A stretch of DNA of 25,767 nt from IMG/VR virus record IMGVR_UViG_3300032167_000022; one strand, given 5' to 3'. The stretch comes from a virus. The notes under the pieces are model-generated. The model did not search any database and was not told the origin of the DNA. It saw only the letters and a list, made by a program, of their open reading frames with translations. The position numbers and the translations under genes were made by a program. Of the stretch, positions 13,101-25,726 are shown in pieces; the first letter of the stretch is position 1, and each line of letters opens with the position of its first letter.

Positions 13101-13370
13101 TCATTTGACCACTTCTTCAATAAATGAACCAAGGCAATTAACAATGGTTGTTAAATTGATATATTCATTCAAATCATCAGAATAATAATCGTCATCACCA
13201 AAAATGTTGTCATTGTTAATTTTTTCCAAAATAGCAAAAGCTGTTCGTAACTGCTCTTTAGCGCCCTGTTTTTGATGTGATTTAATAGCACTTTCAACGT
13301 TAGCAAGCTTCTGTTTCAAAGCATTGTATTCGTTCATTAAATCAAGTAAAGTTTCTTCATTCGGCTTCAT
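13101..13370 (-). CDS. hypothetical protein
   Basis: The track ORF starts at TTG 13448, but the SD GGAGGA precedes the ATGs at 13370-13379. Reads MKPNEETLLDLMNEYNALKQKLANVESAIKSHQ... with a TGA stop. Confidence 0.6.
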   Translation of the reverse strand: MKPNEETLLDLMNEYNALKQKLANVESAIKSHQKQGAKEQLRTAFAILEKINNDNIFGDDDYYSDDLNEYINLTTIVNCLGSFIEEVVK

Positions 13371-13512: not shown

Positions 13513-13536
13513 TTTCTTTACCTCCATGAAGGGCGA

Positions 13537-13944
13537 TTACTCGCCCTTCCCCGCAAACAGTTGAAACATTTTCATCATTTCAGTAAGCCTGTTGAATTCT
13601 TCGTGCCAGTTTTCCCAAGTGTCAGAATTACGATTGAAATAAATCAACGTGGTATCAGTATCTTTGAAAACATGGCTAAGAGCAGGTAATTCACCATCAA
13701 AAATAAAATCATCCAGCTCCATATAACTTCCATCTTCGTAATTATCTTCTTTTACAAGAATATAATATACATCATCGGATTCAAAATGCTCGTCATTAGT
13801 GTCAAGAAGATGTCCATTGATATCATAACAGGAGAAAGGTTCAAACACCTGCTTAATGTGGAGTTCTTCTTCATACTGTACGCAGTCAAATTCATCTTCA
13901 AACTGCGTGCCATCTTCTGCGATAAAATACATTACTTTTTCCAT
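13537..13944 (-). CDS. hypothetical acidic protein
   Basis: 135 aa ORF; its TAA stop sits in the loop of hairpin gaagggcga-ttac-tcgcccttc. Confidence 0.75.
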   Translation of the reverse strand: MEKVMYFIAEDGTQFEDEFDCVQYEEELHIKQVFEPFSCYDINGHLLDTNDEHFESDDVYYILVKEDNYEDGSYMELDDFIFDGELPALSHVFKDTDTTLIYFNRNSDTWENWHEEFNRLTEMMKMFQLFAGKGE

Positions 13945-13988
13945 TTTATTTTACTCTCTTTCTCCCCCCCTCTCTGGGGGGTACTATT

Positions 13989-14017
13989 ATTATACCATAC
14001 TTTGCGCGATTTGTCAA
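13989..14017 (-). promoter_or_regulatory. promoter cassette TTGACA-17-TGgTATAAT with 5' leader hairpin
   Basis: tgtcaa at 14012-14017 and attata at 13989-13994, then cca. Leader cccccccagagagggggg (reverse complement of 13958-13978). Confidence 0.75.
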
Positions 14018-14023
14018 GGGGTT

Positions 14024-14251
14024 TTATAAAAGTTTTTCAAGTTTTTTTGTGTATGCTTCATAGTTTGCTTCAAGGAACAAATATTCAATACCAAGATACT
14101 GGCACAGAGTAGTCGCTCCAAGCATTCGCTGTTTTGCGTTATCTACGATTTCAAGGGGCGTGTAAAGATTGCGTTCAAGCGCTCTTTCTGCGTCTTTTAC
14201 TTCCTGCTCAAAGTATTCAATCAACTTTTCGCTGATTACAAGTGTATTCAT
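14024..14251 (-). CDS. hypothetical protein
   Basis: SD GGAGGAAT before the ATG at 14251 (MNTLVISEKLIEYFEQEVK...). The track's longer version starts from an alternative start inside the upstream gene. Confidence 0.6.
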   Translation of the reverse strand: MNTLVISEKLIEYFEQEVKDAERALERNLYTPLEIVDNAKQRMLGATTLCQYLGIEYLFLEANYEAYTKKLEKLL

Positions 14252-14252
14252 T

Positions 14253-14450
14253 TTATTTATTCCTCCATGCGTCTTTAGAATGTTCTTCAATGCGTCCATC
14301 TGCGCGATACCATTTAATGTAAGTGAAGTAAGTAGTTTCAAATACAATGCCATCAACCGCAGGAAGGGCAGACTTGATACAGAAATTTTTTCCTTTATGT
14401 ACTTTTACTCTTGCGGTAGCTTCTAAAAGGTCGCTCATCCACATATCCAT
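14253..14450 (-). CDS. hypothetical protein
   Basis: 65 aa ORF, first after the promoter at 14491; RBS AGAAAGAGAG. Confidence 0.55.
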   Translation of the reverse strand: MDMWMSDLLEATARVKVHKGKNFCIKSALPAVDGIVFETTYFTYIKWYRADGRIEEHSKDAWRNK

Positions 14451-14490
14451 TTTATTTGCTCTCTTTCTGTTGGTTCTTTACTGTATATAT

Positions 14491-14519
14491 ATTATATCAT
14501 ATTTTTATAAAAATGTCAA
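14491..14519 (-). promoter_or_regulatory. promoter cassette TTGACA-17-TGaTATAAT
   Basis: tgtcaa at 14514-14519 and attata at 14491-14496, then tca. Confidence 0.7.
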
Positions 14520-14620
14520 TAGATATTCTTGTTTATTTACAAAATGTTCATAATTGCGGGATTTGTGCGGTTTGTACAAAAATGTTAAAAAAATTTCTGA
14601 AAATTTGTATAGATTACCAC

Positions 14621-14657
14621 TTGACAAAATAACGCCCGTGGCCTCCGGTCGCGGGCG
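14621..14657 (-). terminator. rho-independent terminator
   Basis: Hairpin cgcccgtggcctccggtcgcgggcg; the reverse complement is followed by ttattttgtc. Confidence 0.6.
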
Positions 14658-14714
14658 TTTGAACAAATCAAGTATATTTTGTAAATAAATTATGAACACA
14701 GCATTTTCGTCATT

Positions 14715-14751
14715 ATGCACAAAAGAAAATCCCTCTACATCAGTAGAGGGA
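14715..14751 (-). terminator. rho-independent terminator overlapping the stop of the 14735 gene
   Basis: Hairpin atccctctac-atca-gtagagggat; the reverse complement is followed by tttcttttgtg. The TAG stop lies in the stem. Confidence 0.65.
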
Positions 14752-15133
14752 TTGTATAAGTTTTGCGGATGGTAATTTCTACCTGTGGTGGAATTTCATG
14801 GAGAACAAAGCGGTCGTTCCGCACATATTCACCAATTCCCATTTCCTGCCACTTTTGGCGGTTTCTGTCCTCAAAACGCAGAGTATTATATTTTGAAAGG
14901 GGCAGCTTCCATAAATAGGTAAATTTGCCATCTGGCGGCATTGTGTGTTCAGGGCTTTTCCTATAATTGCGCGTGTGCTCTGCCTGTCTGCGCTTTAGGT
15001 CGTTAGTTGTTCCAATCTTTAGAACAAAATTTTTGTCGGTATCGTGGTAAAAACCCACATAAAGAAACTCTTTTTCTGCCATTTTTGCATCTTTTTGACT
15101 AAAATTTAAGTGAAAAGTGGGAAAAATTCCCAC
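14735..15133 (-). CDS. GIY-YIG-like nuclease domain protein
   Basis: EFLYVGFYHD...FVLKIGTTNDLKRRQAEH matches the GIY-YIG core (KIG.T.....RR...H). It ends in TAG; if TAG is sense, a 14-codon extension runs to the next TAA. Confidence 0.7.
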   Translation of the reverse strand: MGIFPTFHLNFSQKDAKMAEKEFLYVGFYHDTDKNFVLKIGTTNDLKRRQAEHTRNYRKSPEHTMPPDGKFTYLWKLPLSKYNTLRFEDRNRQKWQEMGIGEYVRNDRFVLHEIPPQVEITIRKTYTIPLLM

Positions 15134-15139
15134 TTTTCT

Positions 15140-15553
15140 TTACTTTTTGGGCTTTCGCTTCTGAACAAGCGTCAATTCAAAGGCATCTTCACCAATTTTG
15201 AACGCAATTTGCCGTTCTTTGTTGGTAATTTCCACATCTTCGGTCGCAAACTGACTGTTTTTTGTCAAAAACTCCGCCAATTCTGCGATTATTCCGCCCT
15301 TTGTGGGATTTGCCTTGCGCTCACGCTGGGAGAAATTGTAAACAGTAGGCTTGCGGTCGCGGCAGTTAGCCATACGCATCGCTTCCTTCTCTGTCTCCTT
15401 GTCAAGGTCGTACGCCAGCCTGTCATTAGCGGAAGCCTTCTCAACTTCCTTGTCATAGGACAAAACCTCAAGAGCTTCTTCTTCGGTACAGCGCAAGCCC
15501 TCTTGAATTCGCTTGACTTGCGCTTTGTCGGCTCGGGTCAGTTCCATCTTCAT
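15140..15553 (-). CDS. hypothetical protein (module partner B; paralog of 19305..19661)
   Basis: RBS AAAGAGGTG. Its C-terminal half is similar to the 19305 gene product. Confidence 0.75.
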   Translation of the reverse strand: MKMELTRADKAQVKRIQEGLRCTEEEALEVLSYDKEVEKASANDRLAYDLDKETEKEAMRMANCRDRKPTVYNFSQRERKANPTKGGIIAELAEFLTKNSQFATEDVEITNKERQIAFKIGEDAFELTLVQKRKPKK

Positions 15554-15572
15554 CACCTCTTTTGGTTAGGCG

Positions 15573-15594
15573 TGGCAGAGGATTAAACCTCTGC
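15573..15594 (-). other. conserved inter-cistronic RNA hairpin enclosing the stop codon (ggcagagg-tttaa-tcctctgcc)
   Basis: Seen directly. The counterpart at 19679-19700 has a different stem and the same loop. Confidence 0.6.
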
Positions 15595-15981
15595 CAGCTT
15601 GAAGTAGGAAACGCGCTTTTCAATCACCTTTTCCATCTTGCCATCTTCTACCAGCTGACGGACAAGCGCAGTGATTCTCTGCTGGGACAGTCCAGCGCAT
15701 TCGGGAACATTCTTGATGAAGTCAGTAACGGTGTGCTGACCGCCATCATTTGCGAGGTAGTCAAGCATTGCCTGCTTCAGCGCATCGTTTGCTTCCTTCT
15801 TTTCCATCTGCTTGCCAGACGGCTTAGCGTTCTTACGAGCCAGTAGGTCAAGCTCATTTTCAATGAATTCAACGAGCGTGGGGTTAGATGCTACAGAGGG
15901 GATAGCGAGGAGGGCGTTGAAGTGGTCACGCTTGGTGAGCTTCTTTGCGGTAGCGTTGAGAGTAGAATTAGTGTTAGCCAT
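15583..15981 (-). CDS. winged-helix-like DNA-binding protein (paralog family A, member 2)
   Basis: 132 aa ORF; a close paralog of 19693..20082 (for example TVTDFIKNVPECAGLSQQRITALVRQLVEDGKMEKV). Leader ccatggtatcaatcctttcagc is shared. Confidence 0.8.
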   Translation of the reverse strand: MANTNSTLNATAKKLTKRDHFNALLAIPSVASNPTLVEFIENELDLLARKNAKPSGKQMEKKEANDALKQAMLDYLANDGGQHTVTDFIKNVPECAGLSQQRITALVRQLVEDGKMEKVIEKRVSYFKLAEV

Positions 15982-16061
15982 GGTATCAATCCTTTCAGCT
16001 GTTTAGGTTGCCAACCTTTTAATTTGTTTGCCGTGGTAGGTTTCCCTCACCCGGTATATAT

Positions 16062-16090
16062 ATTATACCATACTTTATGGTATTTGTCAA
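16062..16090 (-). promoter_or_regulatory. promoter cassette P1 of a tandem triple (TTGACA-17-TGgTATAAT)
   Basis: tgtcaa at 16085-16090 and attata at 16062-16067, then cca. UP-like ttgaaaaacttttcaaaaacc upstream. Confidence 0.75.
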
Positions 16091-16223
16091 GGGGTTTTTG
16101 AAAAGTTTTTCAAAAATTTTTTGCGATACTATCAAGATTTGAAGTCAATTTATCGCATTTTGGACTTCACTTGATGAGGAGATTTTTTACGAGGTTTTAC
16201 TCACCCTCGCCCCTGACATATAT

Positions 16224-16252
16224 ATTATACCATACTTTGAGCGATTTGTCAA
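16224..16252 (-). promoter_or_regulatory. promoter cassette P2 of the tandem triple
   Basis: tgtcaa at 16247-16252 and attata at 16224-16229. No ORF between it and P1. Confidence 0.75.
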
Positions 16253-16330
16253 GGGGTTTTTGAAAAGTTTTTCAAATTTTTTTGAGTGGCTTTCGGCGTC
16301 CCCGCGCATCCTTTTGTTTGGTACATATAT

Positions 16331-16359
16331 ATTATACCACACAATCACGTTTTTGTCAA
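16331..16359 (-). promoter_or_regulatory. promoter cassette P3 of the tandem triple
   Basis: tgtcaa at 16354-16359 and attata at 16331-16336, then cca. Confidence 0.7.
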
Positions 16360-16632
16360 GAGGTTTTTCAAAATTTCTCAAAAAATTTTTTCAATATCCA
16401 AGAACAAGTCAGATTGTCAATTTTTGGTAATGGTATAATATGTGAACGAGTCTATGTTCATTTGTTAATTTTTTATTACGGGAAAACGGCTAATTCACTT
16501 GATTGTTAATAAAATGTTTACAATTTTTTTATACGATATCTCTTGACAAAATTTCGCCCGTGACCTCCGGCCGCGGGCGACTCAAAAGTCAAGTGTTTTT
16601 TATAAATAATTTGTAAATAAATTATGAATGCC

Positions 16633-16668
16633 AAAAGTAAAAGAAAGAGAGGGGCTTGCGCCCTCTCC
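16633..16668 (-). terminator. rho-independent terminator
   Basis: Hairpin gagaggg-gcttgcg-ccctctc; the reverse complement is followed by tttcttttactttt. Confidence 0.6.
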
Positions 16669-16671
16669 TTA

Positions 16672-16905
16672 TTAAAATTCAAGAATCGGAATATCATCTT
16701 CCGCCGCATACACGCCGATAATTTCTTCACCATTATGAAGTTCACAGCGTGCCAGCAGTCTGTTTGTGATAATTTCTTTTGCTTCGGAATAATCTTCATC
16801 TTCTCCAAAAGTGGTAGGGTCTTTATGGATTTCATGAAGTCTTTCAAAAACTTCTTCATTTACATCCATTTCAATCGTGCGATAAAGTGTAACAGCAACT
16901 TTCAT
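16672..16905 (-). CDS. hypothetical acidic protein
   Basis: 77 aa ORF downstream of the promoter at 16948; TAA stop. Confidence 0.7.
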   Translation of the reverse strand: MKVAVTLYRTIEMDVNEEVFERLHEIHKDPTTFGEDEDYSEAKEIITNRLLARCELHNGEEIIGVYAAEDDIPILEF

Positions 16906-16947
16906 TTTATTTTACCTCTTTCTCCCCCCTTTATTGGGGGTACTATT

Positions 16948-16976
16948 ATTATATCACATTTCTTCGGATTTGTCAA
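16948..16976 (-). promoter_or_regulatory. promoter cassette TTGACA-17-TGaTATAAT with leader hairpin
   Basis: tgtcaa at 16971-16976 and attata at 16948-16953. Leader cccccaataaagggggga. Confidence 0.75.
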
Positions 16977-16982
16977 GGGGTT

Positions 16983-17240
16983 TTACAAAATTTCTACATT
17001 TTCCCACCAATCTATAAGTTTTACTTCTGTATAATAAGTATCCCACGATTCTTTTTTCTTTTTATCCCATTCTTCTTTTGCTTTAATAAATTTTTCCTGC
17101 ATATCTGTTTCGCTGGTGTAAGCACCCGTATAAAAAATTGTCTCTTTTGTCCAGTTGCCACGAGAGCCTTGTCCACCATCAACATAACAAGCGGGAACAT
17201 AAATTTTTGCCATTTTCATTTGCTTTACAATTCTTGTCAT
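16983..17240 (-). CDS. hypothetical protein
   Basis: 85 aa ORF; its stop overlaps the UP region of the next promoter. Confidence 0.7.
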   Translation of the reverse strand: MTRIVKQMKMAKIYVPACYVDGGQGSRGNWTKETIFYTGAYTSETDMQEKFIKAKEEWDKKKKESWDTYYTEVKLIDWWENVEIL

Positions 17241-17287
17241 TTTATTTTACCTCTCTCTTTTAGTGCCCCCTGTATTGGGGTACTATT

Positions 17288-17316
17288 ATTATACCACACT
17301 TTTGCTTATTTGTCAA
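17288..17316 (-). promoter_or_regulatory. promoter cassette TTGACA-17-TGgTATAAT with leader hairpin
   Basis: tgtcaa at 17311-17316 and attata at 17288-17293. Confidence 0.75.
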
Positions 17317-17333
17317 GGGATTTAGTAAAATTT

Positions 17334-17657
17334 TTATTCATTAAAAATATATTTCATTGTTTCATTTACCAAATCTTCATCATCATAAATAAATGCATAA
17401 CCATCTGCTGTACAAGCAAAAATAACTGCTTCATCTGCTTTACAATATGGTTTAACAATTTCATCCAGTAAATCACACAATTTATCAAAAGTTTTTCTAC
17501 GTGTCACAACATCTGTTTCTTTATAATGTTTATTTATATATATTGATTTATCAATAATCTGTTTGAAATCATTATTGTTTGTTTCAATTTTAATGATGCG
17601 ATGTCCAGTATCTTCTTCATCCATTTTACGTTTTGCTAAAATAATACCAAGTTTCAT
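17334..17657 (-). CDS. hypothetical protein
   Basis: 107 aa ORF. Confidence 0.7.
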   Translation of the reverse strand: MKLGIILAKRKMDEEDTGHRIIKIETNNNDFKQIIDKSIYINKHYKETDVVTRRKTFDKLCDLLDEIVKPYCKADEAVIFACTADGYAFIYDDEDLVNETMKYIFNE

Positions 17658-17699
17658 TTTGTTTTATTCCTTTCTATCCCCTGTATCGGGGATGTATAT

Positions 17700-17728
17700 A
17701 TTATACCACACTTTTTTGAATTTGTCAA
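17700..17728 (-). promoter_or_regulatory. promoter cassette TTGACA-17-TGgTATAAT with leader hairpin ccccgatacagggg
   Basis: tgtcaa at 17723-17728 and attata at 17700-17705. Confidence 0.75.
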
Positions 17729-17747
17729 TAGGTTTTGCGAAAGTTTT

Positions 17748-18221
17748 TTAAAGAATTTTTGTTTCGCTCACAAAATACTTTGCTTTGTTGGCTTCAAGCA
17801 GTCCTTTTACAATAAGGCTTTGCGCTTGCGTTTCTGCGTAAATGTTGAAAATGGTATATTTACCAATGTTGGGAATATAATTACAAGAAATTCCATTTTC
17901 TCTTAAGTCATTATAAAGGCTTTCGGTGTAAGGCTCACACACAGATGCTTCAATCTTCCAGAGTTTATCTTTACGCGCCTTTTCCTCTACAAACTTAATA
18001 ATCCATACGCAGATGAAATTTGCGATGGCAGTAATTGCCATATTCACCAAAATGCCTACGGTGCCTTGCGCGGTCAGCATGACAATCAGAGGATAGAAAC
18101 CATAACAAACCGCATTCATCACAGCGGACAGCCATTTACCGCTTTTAATGGTGGTAATGGCGCGGATAGTGGAAAGTGATACGTTAATTACAGTAGCGAT
18201 TGCAAAAATTAAAATATTCAT
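17748..18221 (-). CDS. membrane protein (about 3 TM helices) with C-terminal soluble domain
   Basis: Hydrophobic N-terminal 100 aa (MNILIFAIATVINVSL...ITAIANFICVWIIKF) followed by a polar domain. Confidence 0.75.
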   Translation of the reverse strand: MNILIFAIATVINVSLSTIRAITTIKSGKWLSAVMNAVCYGFYPLIVMLTAQGTVGILVNMAITAIANFICVWIIKFVEEKARKDKLWKIEASVCEPYTESLYNDLRENGISCNYIPNIGKYTIFNIYAETQAQSLIVKGLLEANKAKYFVSETKIL

Positions 18222-18227
18222 TTTTTT

Positions 18228-18464
18228 TTATCCCTCCGATTCAATTACAATGTGCGTTTTTACTGGAGTTATAGGGCTATCTTCATCACAAGCCCACAGT
18301 TGACCAGTTAAAAGCACTACAGCATTAATAGATTCATAATCAAAAGATTCAATATTTTTTATTTTCATATTTAAATCGCCATCACAGTCAATGAAGCATT
18401 CACCGACTTTAATGTCTTTAATTGTTACCTCTTTGTCCTTATTTCTCATGTCCTCAACTCTCAT
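18228..18464 (-). CDS. hypothetical protein
   Basis: 78 aa ORF. Confidence 0.7.
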   Translation of the reverse strand: MRVEDMRNKDKEVTIKDIKVGECFIDCDGDLNMKIKNIESFDYESINAVVLLTGQLWACDEDSPITPVKTHIVIESEG

Positions 18465-18506
18465 TTGTTTTACCTCTTTCTACCCTCTCTCTTGGAGGGT
18501 ATATAT

Positions 18507-18535
18507 ATTATACCACATCCAAGAGAGAAAGTCAA
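18507..18535 (-). promoter_or_regulatory. promoter cassette TTGACT-17-TGgTATAAT with leader hairpin
   Basis: agtcaa at 18530-18535 and attata at 18507-18512. Confidence 0.7.
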
Positions 18536-18554
18536 TGTATAATTTGTATTTATT

Positions 18555-18986
18555 TTATGAATTCTTTTTGAACGGGCACTGCGTTTCGCCTGCGTGGTCT
18601 TTCCACCAGTCTGCAAAATCTTCTGCAGTTAATACTTTCATCAAATCATTAATGGAAAGGTTATTAACTCTTTTACAGACCTTCTTGAAGCTAATAGGCT
18701 TCTTGAAATGCTTTTCATCATAATATTTGCCATAGCTATCCCAATCAGAACCCTGCACACGGATGTAAGGACTGCGCCGGAAAAAGGTATAATTTTCTTT
18801 GATACCGGGGAATCTGTCTACCTCTTCGCGCAGTTCCTCAAACGTGCGGCAGGTCGTGCGGAAAGTATCTTCAAAGGTTTTTGCTTCTTCGGGGGTGAGA
18901 TACTCATAATTGTAATCCCACACAAAAATTTCTTCCCATTCATCATCAAAGCGGACGTAATTCTTAACAGCGTAAATATTTTTCAT
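18555..18986 (-). CDS. hypothetical protein
   Basis: 143 aa ORF. Confidence 0.75.
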   Translation of the reverse strand: MKNIYAVKNYVRFDDEWEEIFVWDYNYEYLTPEEAKTFEDTFRTTCRTFEELREEVDRFPGIKENYTFFRRSPYIRVQGSDWDSYGKYYDEKHFKKPISFKKVCKRVNNLSINDLMKVLTAEDFADWWKDHAGETQCPFKKNS

Positions 18987-19031
18987 TGTTTTATCTCCTT
19001 TGCCTGTTGGCTCTTTGTTTTCTGTATATAT

Positions 19032-19060
19032 ATTATATCATATTATAATAAAAAAGTCAA
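19032..19060 (-). promoter_or_regulatory. promoter cassette TTGACT-17-TGaTATAAT
   Basis: agtcaa at 19055-19060 and attata at 19032-19037. Confidence 0.7.
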
Positions 19061-19162
19061 TAGGTTTTCTTTATTGTTTACAAAATGTTCATAATTGCGG
19101 GATTTGTATGAATTGACTAAAAACGCCCAAAAATTTTCTGAAAATTTGTATACATTACCTAT

Positions 19163-19200
19163 TGACAAAAAAAACGCGCGCCACCATCGGCGACGCGCGT
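19163..19200 (-). terminator. strong rho-independent terminator
   Basis: Hairpin acgcgcgccaccatcggcgacgcgcgt; the reverse complement is followed by ttttttttt. Confidence 0.75.
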
Positions 19201-19249
19201 TTGAACAAATCAAGTATATTTTGTAAACAATTTGTGAACTGGAAATTTT

Positions 19250-19295
19250 CGTCAAAATAAACAAAAATGCATATTACATTTGTAATATGCATTTT
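19250..19295 (-). terminator. rho-independent terminator (16-bp perfect inverted repeat)
   Basis: aaaatgcatattaca-tt-tgtaatatgcatttt; the reverse complement is followed by tgtttattttg. Confidence 0.7.
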
Positions 19296-19304
19296 GGAAA
19301 ATAT

Positions 19305-19661
19305 TTACTTTCGGGGAGCAGATAGAGTCAACTTGAATTTTCTACCATTGTAAAGAAACTCCATTTCACGTTCGGGATTGATAATGGTAAGATTTTCCAC
19401 TTTGTCAAAAATTGCCATTTCAATGCCTTTGATTAGTGCTTGCTTGTCGTTGTCGCTTTTGCGTTCCTTGGTGCTTGCTTTGCCGTATGCGTCAACGACT
19501 TTGCGCGGTGCTCGCCGCAATTCTTTACTTGCGTTCTTTTCTTCGGCGGTCTGCTCAAATAGTTTTTCGCCCTTGTCAATGCGCTTATCTGCGTCCATTA
19601 CGTCGGCGATTTCTTCATCTGTAAAGCCGAGCCGCCGCATTGCTTTTTCCTGTTCGCTCAT
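19305..19661 (-). CDS. hypothetical protein (module partner B; paralog of 15140..15553)
   Basis: 118 aa ORF with RBS GAGGGGGG. Confidence 0.75.
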   Translation of the reverse strand: MSEQEKAMRRLGFTDEEIADVMDADKRIDKGEKLFEQTAEEKNASKELRRAPRKVVDAYGKASTKERKSDNDKQALIKGIEMAIFDKVENLTIINPEREMEFLYNGRKFKLTLSAPRK

Positions 19662-19678
19662 GGATTACGTCCCCCCTC

Positions 19679-19700
19679 TTGGGGGAGGGGGATTAAACCC
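19679..19700 (-). other. conserved inter-cistronic RNA hairpin enclosing the stop codon (ggaggggg-tttaa-tccccctcc)
   Basis: Seen directly; a structural homolog of 15573-15594. Confidence 0.6.
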
Positions 19701-20082
19701 CCTCCGGAATGCGGAAGTAAGATACGCGCTTTACGATTACCTTTTCAAGCTTGCCATCTTCTACCATCTGGCGAACCAGTGCGGTAATCTTCTGCGGAGA
19801 AAGTCCAGCGCACGCAGGCACGTTCTTGATGAAGTCGGTAACAGTGTGCTGTTCGCCGCTCGCGGTTGCGAATTCAAGAATCGCCGCCTTAAGCCCCTGA
19901 TTTGCGATGTCCTTTTCAGTGAGCTTCTTGTTGTCGCTGTTGTTCTTGCGAGCCAGCAGGTCAAGTTCGTTGTTGATGAAATCAACGAGTGCGGGATTTG
20001 CGGCAACTTCGGGGAGCTGGAGCAGGGTGTTGAAGTGGTCGCGCTTAGTGAGCTTCTTGGAAGTAGAGTTAGTAGTAGCCAT
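19693..20082 (-). CDS. winged-helix-like DNA-binding protein (paralog family A, member 3)
   Basis: 129 aa ORF, highly similar to 15583..15981. Confidence 0.8.
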   Translation of the reverse strand: MATTNSTSKKLTKRDHFNTLLQLPEVAANPALVDFINNELDLLARKNNSDNKKLTEKDIANQGLKAAILEFATASGEQHTVTDFIKNVPACAGLSPQKITALVRQMVEDGKLEKVIVKRVSYFRIPEGV

Positions 20083-20166
20083 GGTATCAATCCTTTCAGC
20101 GTAGGTCGCTACCCATTATTTTTATTTTACCGATTGGAGGTCGTGCCCTCTTGCTTCGGTATATAT

Positions 20167-20195
20167 ATTATATCATACTTTGAGCGATTTGTCAA
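20167..20195 (-). promoter_or_regulatory. promoter cassette TTGACA-17-TGaTATAAT
   Basis: tgtcaa at 20190-20195 and attata at 20167-20172. Confidence 0.75.
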
Positions 20196-20226
20196 GGGGT
20201 TTTGCAAAAGTTTTTGAAAAATTTTT

Positions 20227-20333
20227 TGGAGGCAGTGGTAGGAGTTGAACCTACGTTTTCCAATGGCGAACGTTTCCATTTGTTGTATCTCAAGCCATCT
20301 TTATGGAAATAGAGCCGCTTCTATCTCACTGCC
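20227..20333 (-). tRNA. tRNA-like element, atypical length (104 nt plus encoded CCA)
   Basis: The minus strand reads GGCAGTG...atag-aagcggct-ctat...gtagg-TTCAACT-cctac-CACTGCC-t-CCA. It has a 7-bp acceptor stem, a D-arm with GG, and a canonical T-arm and loop. The anticodon region carries about 16 extra nt (a 23-nt loop between tccat and atgga), and no clean anticodon was identified. Confidence 0.4.
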
Positions 20334-20373
20334 ATATTATCGGGGAGGATTTGTTCCTCTCTTCTGTATATAT

Positions 20374-20402
20374 ATTATATCATACTTTTGCGGTTTTGTC
20401 AA
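20374..20402 (-). promoter_or_regulatory. promoter cassette TTGACA-17-TGaTATAAT driving the tRNA-like element
   Basis: tgtcaa at 20397-20402 and attata at 20374-20379. The tRNA-like 5' end lies about 35 nt downstream of the predicted transcription start. Confidence 0.75.
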
Positions 20403-20451
20403 GGGGTTTTGCGAAATTTCTTAAAGTTTTTTTTGCGGTAGTCATGGGGGA

Positions 20452-21156
20452 TTAATTCCCCCATAACTCTTTCTGCATTGCCTTGTGTTGTCTGAAACAG
20501 TACGCCATTATCTGCGCTTCAATTTCCACATCTTCAAGCCCTGTATGATTTTCAACAAAATCATTATTGCGGGAAATGAATCTGTAAAGATTTTCCGCTG
20601 TCATGGAAAGTCTGCCAGTTTTTGTCAGATAACCATGTTCTTCACAAAATGCGCGGTAGGTGGGCATCTTTCCGATTACACTTTGCGCCATCTTCATACT
20701 GTCCCAAATTGTAATTCCATAAGGGAGAAAATAGCGGTACTTGCTTTTTGTAGTCCAGCGCTCTGTGCTGTTTAGGCTGTTGTAGTCAAAACGGGCGTTA
20801 TGCGCGCAAATTGTATCAACTGCGAAATCTGCGATATCATTCAGCAGAGCCGAGCGCATTTGATAGGTATTAGCCACAATGCGCCTACCCGCTTCAATGT
20901 CTGCGAGATACTGCGGGATTTTATTTGCGTAGTATGCCGACTTCATCAGTTCAGCTTCATGGAAGAAAATATCAGAATTTACAAAACTCTTTTTGCGGTA
21001 GATGTTTCCATGCTTATCAGTTACCGCCCACCCAAGGTCATACACAAGTGTACTACTTGTGTCAAGCTGTCCTCTTTCATCGCGGAAGGTGTTTGCGGTT
21101 TCCGTGTCAAGCACGATAATGTAATGTCTGCGGCGGTCAATCTTTTCTGTGTTCAT
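20452..21156 (-). CDS. DEDDh-family 3'-5' exonuclease (DnaQ/epsilon-like)
   Basis: Exo I YIIVLDTETAN, Exo II CAHNARFDYNSL, Exo III HTGLEDVEIEAQIM. 234 aa. The TAA stop sits in the loop of hairpin atggggg-attaatt-cccccat. Confidence 0.8.
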   Translation of the reverse strand: MNTEKIDRRRHYIIVLDTETANTFRDERGQLDTSSTLVYDLGWAVTDKHGNIYRKKSFVNSDIFFHEAELMKSAYYANKIPQYLADIEAGRRIVANTYQMRSALLNDIADFAVDTICAHNARFDYNSLNSTERWTTKSKYRYFLPYGITIWDSMKMAQSVIGKMPTYRAFCEEHGYLTKTGRLSMTAENLYRFISRNNDFVENHTGLEDVEIEAQIMAYCFRQHKAMQKELWGN

Positions 21157-21198
21157 TGGTCTATCTCTCTTTCTACCCCCTGTATCGGGGGTATATAT

Positions 21199-21227
21199 AT
21201 TATATCATACTTTGAGCGATTTGTCAA
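21199..21227 (-). promoter_or_regulatory. promoter cassette TTGACA-17-TGaTATAAT with leader hairpin cccccgatacaggggg
   Basis: tgtcaa at 21222-21227 and attata at 21199-21204. Confidence 0.75.
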
Positions 21228-21256
21228 GGGGTTTTGCGAAAGTTTTTTAAAGATTT

Positions 21257-21460
21257 TTAGCGGGGGAAAAAGCAAGCACTTCTGTCATTCCATACTACTA
21301 TGTATTTGTCGCCATTGACTTCTTCTACTCTGTGAAGGGTGGCTTCGTAGAAACCGCATTCCATGAGCGCGTTATACTCATCACGGGCATCATTGAAATT
21401 ATTGAATTGGGTTACTACGCCCTCAATTTCTACCTCAAAATAAATTTTAGTGTTAGTCAT
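21257..21460 (-). CDS. hypothetical protein
   Basis: The true start is the ATG at 21460 (RBS AGAGAGG; MTNTKIYFEVEIEG...). The track's longer version translates the promoter. Confidence 0.65.
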   Translation of the reverse strand: MTNTKIYFEVEIEGVVTQFNNFNDARDEYNALMECGFYEATLHRVEEVNGDKYIVVWNDRSACFFPR

Positions 21461-21494
21461 TTGTGATGTACCTCTCTTTCTTTTCTGTATATAT

Positions 21495-21523
21495 ATTATA
21501 CCACATATCAAGCCAAAAGTCAA
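21495..21523 (-). promoter_or_regulatory. promoter cassette TTGACT-17-TGgTATAAT
   Basis: agtcaa at 21518-21523 and attata at 21495-21500. Confidence 0.7.
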
Positions 21524-21632
21524 TAGGTTTTTGAAAAAAATCTTTCGTCAAATTGCACAAACATTTTGGGAAAATTTCCCTTCACAATTTGTTTACAAAA
21601 TGCTTACAAAAAAGTATTGAAATTCACAATTT

Positions 21633-21670
21633 GTTCAAAAACCGGCCGCTTGGAGCGCGGGCGGCCGGCC
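21633..21670 (-). terminator. rho-independent terminator
   Basis: Hairpin ccggccgc-ttggagcgcgg-gcggccgg; the reverse complement is followed by tttttg. Confidence 0.6.
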
Positions 21671-21767
21671 CAAAAGTCAAGTCAAAATTTGTAAATAAAA
21701 TGAAAACAAAATATGAATTGAAATGAAAAAATGAATCCAAAAAATGGAAACAAAAATTGAAATTGAA

Positions 21768-21796
21768 ATAAAAAACCGCCCAAAGGCGGCTTTTAT
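21768..21796. terminator. bidirectional rho-independent terminator
   Basis: aaaaaaccgcccaaaggcggctttta. Confidence 0.75.
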
Positions 21797-22069
21797 TTAA
21801 TAGGTGATACGAATATTATTCAATCTATCTGTATATGATTCTGGACCATCTTCTTCAAACAGTCTTGTTCCGTTAGCAACTCTTCCACGTTGAACGCAGA
21901 AGAAAATACCATCTTTTCTTGCCCGAGAAATTAAATCATTAAATTCTTCCATATAATTATCGCGTGTAATTTCTTTTTTTCTTCTTTCAATGATAAGTTT
22001 AAGCTCTTCGGCGGTGACTTCCATCAGAACAACATTCTCTTCAACTTCATTAAATCTACCAGTAGGCAT
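21797..22069 (-). CDS. hypothetical protein
   Basis: 90 aa ORF. Confidence 0.7.
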   Translation of the reverse strand: MPTGRFNEVEENVVLMEVTAEELKLIIERRKKEITRDNYMEEFNDLISRARKDGIFFCVQRGRVANGTRLFEEDGPESYTDRLNNIRITY

Positions 22070-22124
22070 TTTGTTTTCTCTCTTTCTTCCGTTCTTTTGG
22101 GCTTCCGGATTTCCTCTGTATATA

Positions 22125-22153
22125 TATTATATCATACTTTGCGGTGTTTGTCA
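22125..22153 (-). promoter_or_regulatory. promoter cassette TTGACA-17-TGaTATAAT
   Basis: tgtcaa at 22148-22153 and attata at 22125-22130. Leader cttccgttcttttgggcttccggatttcc is shared with the promoter at 24362. Confidence 0.75.
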
Positions 22154-22186
22154 AGAGGTTTTGCGAAATTTTTTGAAAAAAATTTT

Positions 22187-22378
22187 TTATGCCAAGAATT
22201 CACCAGTTTGAATATAATGCCAGATAGCTTCTATGCAAGTATGCTCAAAATCATCTATGCGTTTTTCATCATGGCATTTATCATTTAATGGACATTCTTC
22301 ACATTTAAAAATTGGGATATCAATAGATTTTGGGTCAATAATTGCTTGAAAACGTTTAAACTGAATATTTTCTTCCAT
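22187..22378 (-). CDS. small CxxC protein
   Basis: 63 aa with RBS AGGAAAG; contains CEECPLNDKCHDEKRIDDFEHTC. Confidence 0.55.
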   Translation of the reverse strand: MEENIQFKRFQAIIDPKSIDIPIFKCEECPLNDKCHDEKRIDDFEHTCIEAIWHYIQTGEFLA

Positions 22379-22395
22379 GCTATTTCTTTCCTGTA

Positions 22396-22893
22396 TTAAA
22401 ACTTTTTTGAATTTACCTGTATGCGCTCAATCCAAGAGCGCATACAGTAATTCAAGAATATCAATCGCGGTCGGGTCAAACGCTTCGCCCATGTGCCAGC
22501 CCTTGCGAACCTTTTCATTGTCATCAAAGAGCAAGCGGTTTCGTCCTCTTCAAGGTATCTGCGGATGCTGTCAGCCTTAGTCGCGCCATACTTTACACCG
22601 TGGAAGTGAGTGTAAGGAATGCCGAGGGCTTCAAGCCATTCTCGCTTCGCTTCGCGTACCGCTTCATCATACTCGGGAGTGCTTTCCTTTGACAGCCAAG
22701 TGATAATGCGAATTTCAACGCCGTTATCAATCAGCGTATTCAGGATGCAAGCAAGCTCCTCTTCATCCCACATACATTCTGCTTCCCGATACGGGGCAGG
22801 GTCAAACGCACGAAGCTGTTCAAGCCAGTTGGGCACGTTGTAAAGGTCTGCGAGGGTGCCGTCCATGTCAAAGCAAATCATCTTAGGTAACAT
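22396..22893 (-). pseudogene. HAD-superfamily 5'(3')-deoxyribonucleotidase-like gene with apparent -1 frameshift near 22540-22560
   Basis: The start is MLPKMICFDMDGTLADLYNVPNWLEQL (HAD motif I, DxDGT). After ...RRYLEED, the homologous continuation RNRLLFDDNEKVRKGWHMGEAFDP (motif IV, DD) is in another frame, which is closed by a TGA just upstream. The track's M at 22971 translates the promoter. Confidence 0.55.
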
Positions 22894-22942
22894 AGTTTTT
22901 ACTTCCTTTCTCTTGGAACCTCTTGGGTTCCTCTGTATATAT

Positions 22943-22971
22943 ATTATATCACATTTCCGGTCGTTTGTCAA
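22943..22971 (-). promoter_or_regulatory. promoter cassette TTGACA-17-TGaTATAAT
   Basis: tgtcaa at 22966-22971 and attata at 22943-22948. Confidence 0.75.
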
Positions 22972-23015
22972 GAGGTTTTGCGAAATTTTTTAAATTTTTT
23001 TTCGCAAGGTAGAGG

Positions 23016-23192
23016 TCACTTGACCTCTACCACATCCACGATTTCCCATTCTTTGGCAGGATAATCGGTCTCGTTATCAAGGCGATACATACATTCTTTC
23101 TTCGCTTCACCTTTATTACTCGCTTTAACGAAGTATTCATCCCATCCAAATTTCTTGTGATAAACAGAGCAAGCATAAGTTTTCATCTCCAT
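23016..23192 (-). CDS. small hypothetical protein (58 aa)
   Basis: RBS AAAGAAAGGA. Reads MEMKTYACSVYHKKFGWDEYFVKASNKGEAKKECMYRLDNETDYPAKEWEIVDVVEVK; TGA stop inside the palindrome ggtagaggtca-ct-tgacctctacc. Confidence 0.45.
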   Translation of the reverse strand: MEMKTYACSVYHKKFGWDEYFVKASNKGEAKKECMYRLDNETDYPAKEWEIVDVVEVK

Positions 23193-23238
23193 GTGTCCTT
23201 TCTTTGGTCGCCTATTGGCTTTCCTTTACTGTATATAT

Positions 23239-23267
23239 ATTATATCATATTTTAATAAAAATGTCAA
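23239..23267 (-). promoter_or_regulatory. promoter cassette TTGACA-17-TGaTATAAT
   Basis: tgtcaa at 23262-23267 and attata at 23239-23244. Confidence 0.7.
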
Positions 23268-23384
23268 TGAATATTCTGTAAATAGATTGTGAAGTTTCTG
23301 TGAACTGGCCTATTGGTAGTTTCAGGAAATGGGAAACATATGCGAATTATCCAGTTTTTGCCATAAAAAATGCGGAATTAGGTG

Positions 23385-23435
23385 GCCATTAGAAATACCG
23401 CTCGTTTCGGGTGGTAAACGCCCGGAAACGAGCGG
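23385..23435 (-). terminator. rho-independent terminator (11-bp stem)
   Basis: ccgctcgtttc...gaaacgagcgg; the reverse complement is followed by tatttctaat. Confidence 0.55.
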
Positions 23436-23454
23436 GCGCCCACAATTGTAAATT

Positions 23455-23545
23455 TTTTAAAAAAATTTTATGAACAAATTGTGAACAAAATATGAACAAA
23501 AATGTATGAACAAATTGTGAACAGAATATGAACAAATTGTTACCA
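23455..23545. repeat. six tandem copies of (T)ATGAACAAA(T)
   Basis: tatgaacaaattgtgaacaaaatatgaacaaaaatgtatgaacaaattgtgaacagaatatgaacaaattg. Confidence 0.65.
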
Positions 23546-23591
23546 AAGCGGCTGGATATTTTTTCCACCCAGCCGCTTTATTTTACATCTG

Positions 23592-23957
23592 TCACATAGG
23601 GATTCTATCAACCGCATCCGCCTGCGCGATTGCTTTTTCAATCAGTGTATCAAGCGCTTTTTCAATTCTCGCAAGCTCTGCTTTGTTCTTGACTATATAA
23701 TGGTCATTCCCTTTACGTTCAACATCAAAGTTGTTTTCAAGAATCAAATGCGCGTTAGCCTCAATTACTCTGCGATATGCGATATTATCGTCGCACTCCC
23801 AATTTTTCATGATTAGGTCTTTGTCTCTGTAAAATACCTCTCTTGCTCTTCGGATAACGTTATTTGTTTCGCCGATTTTAATGACGTAGGTGCCGCGCTT
23901 TTTTTCTTGTAAAGCAAGCACCGTTTTTTCGTTCATCGCATAGTAAACACAGCTCAT
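23592..23957 (-). CDS. GIY-YIG-like nuclease domain protein
   Basis: VYYAM...GTYVIKIGETNNVIRRAREV fits the GIY/YIG plus Arg pattern. 121 aa, TGA stop. Confidence 0.65.
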   Translation of the reverse strand: MSCVYYAMNEKTVLALQEKKRGTYVIKIGETNNVIRRAREVFYRDKDLIMKNWECDDNIAYRRVIEANAHLILENNFDVERKGNDHYIVKNKAELARIEKALDTLIEKAIAQADAVDRIPM

Positions 23958-24003
23958 TTTATTTTACCTCTTTCTTTATTTTTTGTTGGAGTCAATCCCC
24001 GCT

Positions 24004-24123
24004 TTACGCGGGGATTTTTCTGACCAGCTTGCCGTGCTTCATTTCTTCCACCTTAAGCTCGCGCTTGCTGAATCCCTTCACTGCTGTTCTGTAGCCGTCT
24101 GCGAAAATAAACCACCAAAACAT
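24004..24123 (-). CDS. small hydrophobic/basic protein (39 aa)
   Basis: SD AAGGGGGAT. Reads MFWWFIFADGYRTAVKGFSKRELKVEEMKHGKLVRKIPA; its TAA sits in the loop of hairpin atccccgc-tttac-gcggggat. Confidence 0.4.
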   Translation of the reverse strand: MFWWFIFADGYRTAVKGFSKRELKVEEMKHGKLVRKIPA

Positions 24124-24143
24124 CTTTTTTATCCCCCTTTTAT

Positions 24144-24303
24144 TATTCGTGTTCAGCTCTGTCAACGTACTTAACAACTTCAACGGGTACGTCACACATA
24201 ATTGCGATTTCTTCAATGCCGTACAAGTAAACATCGCCGACGCATTCATCAAGCAGGTTTGCAATTTCTACATACTTTTCAAAAGTGATGCTTTCAATAG
24301 TCA
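24144..24303 (-). CDS. small hypothetical protein (53 aa)
   Basis: The ATG at 24303 follows leader ...agagagattaaaaaa. Reads MTIESITFEKYVEIANLLDECVGDVYLYGIEEIAIMCDVPVEVVKYVDRAEHE. Confidence 0.55.
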
Positions 24304-24361
24304 TTTTTTTAATCTCTCTTTCTTCCGTTCTTTGTGGCTTCCGGATTTCCTTTACTGTATC

Positions 24362-24390
24362 TATTATACCACACAATTGCGATTCTGTCA
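24362..24390 (-). promoter_or_regulatory. promoter cassette TTGACA-17-TGgTATAAT
   Basis: tgtcaa at 24385-24390 and attata at 24362-24367. Confidence 0.7.
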
Positions 24391-24508
24391 AGGGGGTTTT
24401 TGAAATTTCTTTAAAAAAAATGTATTTTGTACGTTTTGCACAAAAATGTATAAATATTCATTTTTGTATAATTTGACTAAAAATGTATATTATACATTTT
24501 TGTGCAAT

Positions 24509-24538
24509 TTGACGAACGAACATTTGTTCGCGTATAGT
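24509..24538 (+). promoter_or_regulatory. plus-strand promoter TTGACG-18-TATAGT with a perfect Firmicutes LexA (Cheo) box CGAACATTTGTTCG in the spacer
   Basis: ttgacg at 24509-24514, cgaacatttgttcg at 24517-24530, tatagt at 24533-24538. Confidence 0.5.
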
Positions 24539-24696
24539 TTTGCGATTTTCTGCTTTTACCATTTTCTTCCAGCACTTACAAATTTTCCCATTTACCAGAA
24601 AATGGTAAAAAGACCGTTAAATTCTTAACAAGCGCATCCAGTTTCTTCCATTACCAAATGGTGGATGAATTTCCAAAATTTACCGGGTAGGGAAAA

Positions 24697-24960
24697 CGCG
24701 AAAACTGTTTTTTCCAAAAACTGGAATTTCGTGAAAATTTTAACAATCGCGCGGCCGCCCCTTATTTTAACACTTTATCACTTTACCATACTAAAGCGCG
24801 ACTTCGGGGCCCCGCGACACTTGTCGTACAAAACGGAAGGCTGGCATTGTGAAATTTTTCACAAACACGAAAATCGTCAAAAAACTGTTTTTCACTTTCA
24901 CGCTTTACCATACTAAAGTGTGTGAAATTTTTAACAATCGGCGGGCCGCAGGGGAGAGGG
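24697..24960. repeat. two diverged direct repeats (aaaactgtttttc..., ctttaccatactaaag, gtgaaatttttaacaatcg-GC hairpin)
   Basis: Shared blocks at 24697-24770 and 24870-24960, seen directly. Confidence 0.5.
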
Positions 24961-25270
24961 TTTGTTAACAAAAAATTTACAATTTAAAAATTTACAATTT
25001 GTTTACATTCGGGAGAATTTGTTCACAATTTATTTACAATTTATTTAAAAAAAAATATTGAAATTCACAGTTTGTTCACAAATTCGGGCCCTGGGGCCCG
25101 AGAACAGAGATAATTGTGAACAAATTGTAAATTTTTTGTTAACAATTCATAAATTGTTAACAAAAAATTTACAATTTGTTCACAATTTGTTCACATTCGG
25201 GAAATAAAAAGTTTACAATTTGTTCACAATTTGTTTACAAAAAATTCACAAATTGTTCACAATTTGTGAA
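24960..25270. repeat. dense array (more than 20 copies) of an 11-12-bp repeat ACAATTTGTTCACA / TTGTGAACAA with three TCACAttCGGG punctuations
   Basis: Examples: tttacaatttgtttacattcggg, aatttgttcacaatttatttacaattt, aattgtgaacaaattgtaaat, tttacaatttgttcacaatttgttcacattcggg, ttcacaaattgttcacaatttgtgaac. Confidence 0.7.
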
Positions 25271-25399
25271 CTCCGGCCGCTTGGAACGCGAGCGGCCGGC
25301 TCAAAATCAAGCATATTTTGTAAATAATTTGTAAATTAAAAATGAATTTTTTGTAAACAATTTATGAATTTTTTATTCATAGAAATTTTACAATTTGTT

Positions 25400-25442
25400 C
25401 ATAAATTAAAAATGGTAAATGCTGGAATTACCAGCATTTACC
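25400..25442 (-). terminator. rho-independent terminator with the stop codon in the loop (12-bp stem)
   Basis: ggtaaatgctgg-aatta-ccagcatttacc; the reverse complement is followed by atttttaatttat. Confidence 0.7.
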
Positions 25443-25634
25443 AATCTTTGCGATTAATTTTTTTTGGTAATCTCTACCATGCGCAAACACCCACTTGCTT
25501 TTGATTTTGTGATTTGTTTCATTATAAATATTAGTGCTTCTGATTGCGCTCTCAAGCCATCTGACATTGTTTGCCATAAGCACTTCACCAGTAGTAAGAT
25601 TGTAAGCGGCATGCGGTCTGTTGTTAGTAGTCAT
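25428..25634 (-). CDS. hypothetical protein
   Basis: The true start is the ATG at 25634 (RBS GGAAGT; MTTNNRPHAAYNLTTGEVL...). The track's longer form translates the promoter. Confidence 0.6.
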   Translation of the reverse strand: MTTNNRPHAAYNLTTGEVLMANNVRWLESAIRSTNIYNETNHKIKSKWVFAHGRDYQKKLIAKIGKCW

Positions 25635-25709: not shown

Positions 25710-25726
25710 TAGGTTTTTGAAAAGTT

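Follow-up and report, generated by a model that had tools for sequence, protein, structure and literature searches.

Terminal stem-loops stabilise bacterial and phage mRNAs, and intercistronic hairpins shield the upstream cistron from 3′ exonucleases; we know of no description in which such an mRNA-stabilising stem-loop is placed across a stop codon. In translational coupling, for example in the RNA coliphages, a structure sequesters the downstream ribosome-binding site and is opened by the upstream ribosome. Gene-end terminators have been described in relation to the ribosome as well: in Escherichia coli, terminators a few base pairs from a stop codon are repressed by the ribosome (PMC4824070), while in Bacillus subtilis terminators normally lie a few nucleotides from stop codons, as RNA polymerase moves ahead of the ribosome (Johnson et al. 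2020, as summarised in PMC7858274 and PMC12207403). A further related system is formed by the promoter-early stem-loop (PeSL) cassettes of the T4-type phages RB49 and phi1 (PMC2839356, PMC4122927). These combine strong promoters of the sigma-70-like type and an A/T-rich upstream region with stem-loops that are often polyG/polyC and vary in position; termination of transcription has been demonstrated for them, a driving role in modular shuffling has been proposed, and recombination was mapped within or beside the stem-loop (PMC2839356). Here, we analysed hairpins that span the stop codons of genes in the IMG/VR virus record IMGVR_UViG_3300032167_000022, a DNA stretch of 25,767 nucleotides that is referred to as the window.

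The minus strand carries every gene from ∼12 kb to the right end of the window, and 27 minus-strand genes, mostly small and without an assigned function, were curated in positions 12,000-25,767. At 10 of these 27 stops (37%), the stop codon was found in the loop of a hairpin with an energy (E) ≤ -10 (Table 1). The stems of all ten hairpins are GC-rich and perfect, with 8-13 bp, loops of 4-7 nt and energies between -15.8 and -20.7 kcal/mol. An initial annotation of this DNA had reported at least seven such genes; the seven sites it listed were all correct as described, and the stops at 22427, 14735 and 13101 extend the set to ten. A comparison with shuffled controls spoke against chance, as 300 dinucleotide-preserving shuffles of the flanks yielded a mean of 0.07 and a maximum of one stop-in-loop hairpin. 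Within the genes, 2 of 2020 internal in-frame codons were located in such loops, as were none of 336 out-of-frame stop triplets inside coding sequences (CDSs). This showed that the stop-in-loop pattern is genuine and greatly exceeds what chance would give. In the left part of the window (1-10 kb), such a hairpin is absent from all 13 genes.

Six further genes of the 27 have a hairpin that begins 0-15 nt past the stop, and all gene-end hairpins of the window (16/16) overlap the stop or start at most 15 nt after it. A hairpin is lacking at the other 11 genes, which often end right within the A-rich element 5′ of the next promoter. No hairpin with E ≤ -12 was detected wholly within a CDS between 12 and 25.7 kb.

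Table 1. Hairpins of the window and of related loci. SD, Shine-Dalgarno sequence; aa, amino acids; positions are those of the window unless a locus is named.
Feature	Position	Strand	Stop	Stem and loop	Energy (kcal/mol)	Remarks
Stop hairpin	25413..25443	-	25428	TGGTAAATGCTGG, 13 bp, loop TAATT	-20.2	TAA forms the first three loop bases; U-tract after the stem, tail TTTTTAATTT
Stop hairpin	23994..24016	-	24004	AATCCCCGC-GTAAA-GCGGGGATT, 9 bp	-16.2	No U-tract; between 39-aa gene (24123..24004) and T5orf172-like gene (start 23957); downstream SD unpaired
Stop hairpin	23008..23031	-	23016	GGTAGAGGTC-AAGT-GACCTCTACC, 10 bp	-17.2	No U-tract; TGA spans loop and 3′ arm; -35 box (22971) of next consensus promoter 37 nt downstream
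Stop hairpin	22417..22447	-	22427	12 bp	-20.7	TGA at edge of loop and 3′ arm; ancestral end of HAD-like gene, valid only in the homologues' frame (frameshift near 22535)
Stop hairpin	20440..20468	-	20452	(AGTT)ATGGGGGA-ATTAA-TCCCCCAT, 12 pairs with one G.U	-19.5	No U-tract; ends 234-aa exonuclease gene; next -35 box (20402) 38 nt downstream
Stop hairpin	19684..19705	-	19693	GGAGGGGG-TTTAAT-CCCCCTCC	-17.2	Between 129-aa gene and 118-aa partner; followed by a C-run able to pair the partner's SD
Stop hairpin	15573..15596	-	15583	TGGCAGAGG-TTTAAT-CCTCTGCCA	-16.5	Paralogue of the 19693 hairpin; between 132-aa gene and 135-aa partner
Stop hairpin	14728..14753	-	14735	11 bp, loop TGAT	-17.1	Predicted U-tract terminator; 5′ arm and loop coding; TAG begins one base inside 3′ arm; end of T5orf172-like gene 15091..14735
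Stop hairpin	13528..13549	-	13537	GAAGGGCGA-GTAA-TCGCCCTTC, 9 bp	-15.8	UAA stop inside GNRA loop GUAA; SD of next gene (start 13512) 3 nt downstream, its GGAGG mostly unpaired
Stop hairpin	13091..13118	-	13101	12 pairs, loop AAAT	-17.3	Predicted U-tract terminator, T-rich tail; TGA at edge of loop and 3′ arm; end of gene 13370..13101
Post-stop hairpins	23544-23580, 21771-21794, 19264-19295, 16644-16670, 15112-15138, 12084-12104	-				Most with U-tract, at ends of transcription units
5′-terminal GC-rich hairpins	21174-21193, 18481-18501, 17675-17694, 17261-17285, 16923-16940, 13964-13981	-				At ∼+1, after -10 box and before SD
Module with GC-rich hairpin	25273-25299, 21642-21668, 19172-19202, 16554-16580, 14631-14659, about 13003-13036, 23414-23443
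-35 box TTGACA in loop of gene-end hairpin	L015, L036, L042, L065, L002; Enterococcus phage H1 locus L069 (e.g. 14530-14560, 16260-16290)

A U-tract directly 3′ of the stem was present in only three of the ten hairpins (25413-25443, 14728-14753 and 13091-13118), and the other seven are followed by tails such as GACTCCAAC, TTGCGAAAA and ACCGCAAAA. The initial annotation had divided its hairpins into genuine terminators and structures between coupled cistrons. In outline this division was sustained: the three hairpins with a U-tract are predicted terminators at unit ends, five hairpins (24004, 22427, 19693, 15583 and 13537, named by their stops) are intercistronic and far from any promoter, and the remaining two lie just upstream of a promoter, 37-38 nt 5′ of its -35 box. 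A search with Rfam at the gathering threshold and with default filters gave no match, and no known RNA family was placed on any stop hairpin.

One pipeline for open reading frames (ORFs), SD sequences and hairpins was applied to 62 related metagenomic loci, which resulted in 658 called genes. Of these, 264 had a gene-end hairpin with E ≤ -10. Of these 264 stop codons, 114 precede the stem, 31 fall on its first bases, 19 lie deep within the 5′ arm, 82 are in the loop and 18 are in the 3′ arm. An additional 12 ORFs ran straight through a hairpin. The distribution of stop positions is bimodal, with stops either just before or at the first stem bases or else in the loop, and with a trough in the 5′ arm. 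Genes with the stop in the loop represent 12.5% of the called genes (82/658), a share that is exceeded in the right part of the window (37%; p = 0.001). When all three frames were read into hairpins located after stops, as a neutral model, 13% of the hairpin-entering ORFs stopped in the loop and 64% read through completely, compared with 63% and 9%, respectively, of the actual ORFs (p about 1e-39). This excess of loop stops and deficit of read-through show that the 3′ arm is kept untranslated, which is a strong rule in these loci. The neutral frame model and the shuffles thus support the view that the recurrence, which the initial annotation took to be a general design, is a selected design and not chance.

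The related loci also showed what surrounds such hairpins. A consensus promoter with at least 11 of 12 matches was present within 100 nt downstream of 62% of the stop-in-loop hairpins, compared with 37% of the post-stop hairpins (p = 5e-4), and only 14% of the stop-in-loop hairpins were followed by a same-strand start within 60 nt. In several relatives, the stop TGA is even the TGA of the -35 hexamer TTGACA, which lies in the hairpin loop while the 3′ arm forms the promoter spacer (Table 1). We considered that the share of U-tracts might differ between the two classes; there was no such difference, as U-tracts occurred in about 20% of both (18/82 stop-in-loop and 21/114 post-stop hairpins).

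The position of the stop relative to the hairpin proved to be variable within gene families. In the family of the 129-aa gene, whose homologues were found in rumen and gut metagenomes, at least 55 of 62 members end in a GC-rich hairpin, which frequently has a GNRA loop and mostly lacks a U-tract. Only about 10 of the 62 have the stop in the loop, and otherwise the stem begins a few nucleotides after the stop. The hairpin itself is therefore conserved while its register with the stop is not, which implies that its function does not need the stop in the loop. Homologues of the HAD-like gene in L002, L003, L015 and L030 have gene-end hairpins unrelated in sequence with the stop at the same place. 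The terminator at 14735 is kept in homologues in L003, L004, L035 and L028, with a TGA at the loop edge. In L009, the exonuclease homologue has a homologous C-terminus (LWEN*) and no hairpin.

Several observations indicated that the pairing is under selection. The paralogous hairpins at 19693 and 15583 have the same loop, TTTAAT, and their stems differ by three double compensatory changes (GGAGGGGG/CCCCCTCC versus GGCAGAGG/CCTCTGCC); a third version, GGTGGAAGGGG/CCCCTTCCACC, occurs in L003. These changes were read directly from the sequences, as a MAFFT alignment set the 3′ arm of L003 out of register. In the T5orf172-like family, the coding 5′ arm varies by synonymous or conservative changes (GTT/GTC/ATC), and the non-coding 3′ arm tracks it through matching changes or G.U pairs. 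Among the exonuclease, HAD and other families, the stem sequences of homologues are unrelated and the gene-end hairpin persists. Compensatory changes of this kind speak against the view that the hairpins are a mutational by-product, in which fold-back or template-switch errors would make perfect inverted repeats that persist at weakly constrained C-termini and 3′ flanks. The perfect stems, their fast turnover between homologues and the presence or absence of a hairpin behind the same C-terminal peptide (L035 versus L040; the window versus L009) would suit such an origin. However, old stems are maintained by compensatory substitutions, the hairpins are restricted to gene ends with none in CDS bodies, the 129-aa family retains one at the same gene end in nearly all homologues, and mismatches are biased toward G.U as described below. 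We consider this origin very unlikely.

The mismatches in the stems also bear on whether the hairpins act as RNA or as DNA. An earlier count was discarded as biased, because the hairpin finder had allowed G.U and not A.C pairs. With a strand-symmetric detection based on Watson-Crick pairs only, single mismatches in gene-end stems were G.U in 31 cases and A.C in 11 (p = 0.003). Furthermore, in several stems the sense strand can form more pairs than the antisense strand. The asymmetry of G.U over A.C points to a function of the hairpins as sense-strand RNA. Alternatively, the inverted repeats could be DNA-level palindromes, either sites of recombination and module shuffling, as proposed for PeSL, or cruciform or protein-binding sites that modulate the adjacent promoter. 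In favour of such palindromes, the hairpins are located at module boundaries, and the syntenic locus L002 lacks many of the small ORF cassettes of the window; in relatives the -35 box can be in the loop, and PeSL recombination was mapped in or next to the stem-loop (PMC2839356). The strand asymmetries described above are at odds with this possibility, as is the position of five hairpins of the window between cistrons, distant from promoters. In addition, the stems share no sequence, which makes a single sequence-specific binding protein unlikely. On balance, a role as DNA palindromes appears improbable.

As a separate candidate rule, we considered whether an SD-like 5′ arm generally pairs with an anti-SD-like 3′ arm. 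This was rejected, since the hairpins at 24004 and 14735 have the opposite polarity.

The initial annotation had further proposed, as a general design, that the arrival of the ribosome at the stop melts a structure that otherwise masks the downstream SD or forms a terminator. In such a ribosome-gated switch, the stop in the loop would let the terminating ribosome melt the hairpin, and downstream expression would depend on upstream translation, either because termination is suppressed or because the downstream ribosome-binding site is unmasked or re-masked. The geometry suits this idea. Judging by the known footprint, termination at a loop stop would require the ribosome to melt the whole hairpin, and the footprint also covers a stem that begins 3-10 nt after the stop; moreover, E. 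coli ribosomes suppress terminators that adjoin stops (PMC4824070). Partition-function folds of the five intercistronic junctions, however, showed that the downstream SD is open at 24004, 22427 and 13537. At 15583->15547 the downstream SD is weakly paired, with a partner outside the stop hairpin. Only at 19693->19661 is the SD clearly sequestered, and this is due to the C-run beside the hairpin and not to the hairpin; a terminating ribosome would cover this C-run, which is in line with a switch at this junction. Between the stop and the next start, the intercistronic gaps measure 24-48 nt, and a strong SD of its own precedes every downstream gene, for which reason the description of these cistrons as coupled could not be confirmed. 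In addition, a U-tract is restricted to three of the ten hairpins, the position of the stop is not conserved among homologues, the stop-in-loop hairpins of the relatives mostly precede a promoter and seldom a nearby start, and the likely host type is uncoupled, as outlined below. Because of the open SDs, the long gaps, the unconserved register and the promoter-proximal location in relatives, unmasking of the SD or reinitiation is not the general design, and we regard a ribosome-gated switch as unlikely.

A broader version of this idea holds that the loop placement itself is functional, with terminating ribosomes toggling an RNA insulator hairpin in a lineage-wide, ribosome-sensed insulation code. 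If true, the extent of read-through into the following cassette, or else how stable the upstream message is, would track the translation level of the ORF; in some relatives the stop doubles as the TGA of the next promoter's -35 hexamer. Nothing in the data requires such a code, and we judge it quite unlikely.

Comparator phages were informative with respect to the host. In Bacillus phage SPO1, 4 of the 74 genes within the first 50 kb have their stop in a hairpin loop, and Enterococcus phage H1 has 3 such genes among 67 over a stretch of 40 kb; T4 has none among 59 over its first 50 kb. The share in the related uncultured loci (12.5%) exceeds that in the two Firmicutes phages (p = 0.008). As in the relatives, hairpins with the -35 box in the loop occur at gene ends of Enterococcus phage H1. 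Since SPO1 and H1 are positive and T4 is not, the comparators fit the picture of a host with uncoupled transcription. The sense strand of the region has a purine content of 55-56%; B. subtilis genes have 53-54%, which has been tied to runaway transcription (PMC13323073). For the 234-aa exonuclease, the closest cultured relatives are Enterococcus phages of ∼140 kb, with 40% protein identity, and these phages have a HAD-like gene and the exonuclease gene in a similar neighbourhood. The purine content, the extended -10 promoters, the strong SDs and the Enterococcus phage relatives together suggest a Firmicutes-type host in which RNA polymerase would outrun the ribosome.

The region is dense with promoters. 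A consensus scan for TTGACA-17-TGnTATAAT identified 17 perfect copies (12/12) and five with 11/12 matches between 12590 and 25709, ∼22 in all and all on the minus strand. They form a ∼77-nt repeat family with 15 copies and an A/T-rich upstream element, and some copies extend through a 5′ hairpin and the SD. The GC-rich hairpins at the predicted 5′ ends of transcripts (Table 1) are likely stabilisers and part of this repeated cassette.

We therefore arrive at an interpretation that we hold to be probable, namely that the stop hairpins are sense-strand RNA hairpins at the 3′ ends of early genes, acting as terminators, insulators or 3′ stabilisers in PeSL-like cassettes of promoter and stem-loop. 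A cassette would consist, in this order, of an A/T-rich element, a consensus promoter of the sigma-A/sigma-70 type, often a 5′ hairpin, then a strong SD with at least one small ORF, and finally a 3′ hairpin. Judged by their sequence, the three hairpins with a U-tract are putative intrinsic terminators. The seven others would most likely serve as partial terminators or insulators against read-through and, in addition, as barriers to 3′-to-5′ exonucleases that stabilise the upstream cistron. The stop would come to lie in the loop because the 5′ arm is made from the last three to four codons and the 3′ arm from the non-coding bases right after the stop, which are free to evolve complementarity. 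The A/T-rich stop at the arm boundary would then make up the loop, to which it is better suited than to a GC-rich stem, and the hairpin would take up no intergenic space, mostly at places with a promoter immediately behind. This would work only if the hairpin forms before the ribosome arrives, which fits an RNA polymerase that runs ahead of the ribosome. Each terminating ribosome would open the hairpin for a short time, and this would be tolerated as a side effect without serving as a signal. The stop hairpins of the window thus look like an unusually compact form of the ordinary gene-end terminator or insulator hairpin, and not like a new translation-sensing switch.

Several points weigh against this interpretation. 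Unlike in the relatives, half of the window's stop-in-loop hairpins are intercistronic and not promoter-proximal. There are long non-coding stretches in the region, so that genome-wide compaction cannot be the driver, and many junctions between a gene and a promoter have no hairpin, so that the hairpin is optional. The roles proposed for the seven hairpins without a U-tract are deduced from sequence, and the gene calls in the related loci came from a simple heuristic of ORF and SD. Lastly, the host labels of two metagenome-assembled genomes, on short contigs, are Treponema and Clostridia.

Among the genes next to the stop hairpins, the 129-aa and 132-aa genes belong to a duplicated two-gene module on the minus strand (15140-16062 and 19305-20195), the copies of which have 76-89% nucleotide identity in blocks. 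Each copy comprises a long leader, the 129/132-aa gene, the conserved intercistronic hairpin and the 118/135-aa gene, which has a basic tail at its end. The third codon positions of the 129/132-aa genes are GC-rich, unlike those of neighbouring genes, and the gene pair is kept in more than 60 metagenomic loci. The HAD-like hydrolase gene (22427-22893, minus strand) is split by a frameshift near 22535, whereas its homologue in L002 is continuous; the frameshift could be a sequencing error, a pseudogene mutation or a case of recoding. Synteny of L002 with the window spans about 10 genes, and many of the window's small ORF cassettes are missing from L002. Among 50,697 phage records, a DNA search for near-identical sequence gave no match to the region, and searches of ten proteins against Pfam and PHROGs gave weak or uninformative matches only.

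The left part of the window (1-10000) differs from positions 12000-25767 in its lower GC content (∼31%), its larger genes and the lack of consensus promoters of the family described above. The GC skew switches sign at ∼10-12 kb, where a few plus-strand ORFs are located, which marks a module boundary. At the opposite edge of the window, a run of ∼28 A residues is present on the minus strand just 5′ of the last promoter (25730-25757).

Some of the consensus promoters appear to direct non-coding transcripts. The perfect promoter at 20402-20374 is positioned to drive a tRNA-like gene (20230-20333, minus strand), which reached 29.4 bits with the Rfam tRNA model (gathering threshold 29). Its features are an acceptor stem of 7 bp, a D arm, a T arm and an encoded CCA, with 41 nt in place of the anticodon loop; ARAGORN called no tRNA, neither here nor elsewhere in the sequence it was given. 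At 16359-16290 and 16252-16120 (minus strand), perfect consensus promoters are followed by short stretches that are predicted to be transcribed and contain no ORF, and these may encode small RNAs. A third promoter (16090-16062) heads the long structured leader of the 132-aa gene, which may likewise give rise to a small RNA.

The window contains further repeats. Dense arrays of 11-nt-periodic motifs (TTCACAATTTG / TTTACAATTTG), in direct and inverted orientation, are located at 24960-25410, 23480-23550 and 21580-21750, and include a perfect 36-bp palindrome at 25112-25187. These arrays look like iterons or an operator array, and possibly mark a replication origin. In the long AT-rich intergenic regions there is also a recurrent module in which the motif TTTACAAA..TAT.CTTGA is followed by a very GC-rich hairpin (Table 1). 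Some of these module hairpins pair better on the plus strand, with G.U in place of C.A, which suggests a role or orientation unlike that of the gene-end hairpins.

With respect to its meaning, the locus reveals no new regulatory mechanism. It provides a quantified case, in uncultured gut and rumen phages, of gene-end RNA structure that is pushed far into coding sequence, and it extends the PeSL-like cassette architecture beyond T4-type phages. In addition, it supports reading the geometry of stop and stem, for uncultured phages, as a sign from sequence alone that the host has uncoupled transcription.

Compared with the known systems, the hairpins of the window resemble coupling of the RNA-coliphage type at a single junction, 19693->19661, where the C-run pairs the SD and would be covered by a terminating ribosome; elsewhere the SD is mostly unsequestered, the gaps are long, and the downstream SDs are strong and independent. 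As in mRNA-stabilising stem-loops, strong hairpins are present at the predicted +1 of several transcripts and at cistron ends that lack a U-tract, although here the stem-loop spans the stop codon. There is also a likeness to the stop-proximal terminators of hosts with runaway transcription: stems either start under the footprint of a ribosome at the stop codon or extend into the CDS, they are rich in GC and enclose short loops, a U-tract is present in 3 of 10 cases, and the pattern occurs in the Bacillus and Enterococcus phage comparators and is absent from the T4 comparator. Differences from these terminators are the lack of a U-tract in 7 of 10 hairpins here and in ∼80% of those in relatives, the extent of overlap (37% here and 12.5% in relatives, versus about 5% in SPO1 and H1), and the sharply bimodal stop position with its preference for the loop. 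With the PeSL cassettes, the region shares repeated strong sigma-70-type promoters with an A/T-rich upstream region. It appears to share stable stem-loops next to promoters that are often polyG/polyC and flank small ORFs of unassigned function, and related genomes may likewise differ by whole cassettes. The position of the stem-loop varies in both, being 5′ of the A/T region, over the -35 box or just 3′ of the -10 box; in the window, a -35 box follows two of the stop hairpins at the distances given above, six hairpins lie just 3′ of a -10 box, and five of the stop hairpins are not associated with a promoter. In contrast to the PeSL phages, however, the phage described here is not T4-type, the nearest cultured relatives of one of its genes being Enterococcus phages, and its stem-loops often borrow their 5′ arm from the upstream coding sequence. 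The parts of this arrangement are thus already known from the stop-overlapping terminators of Firmicutes-type systems, from PeSL-like cassettes and from stabilising stem-loops, while its occurrence in an uncultured non-T4 phage lineage, its high frequency and the quantified rule that relates ORF ends to hairpins are new.

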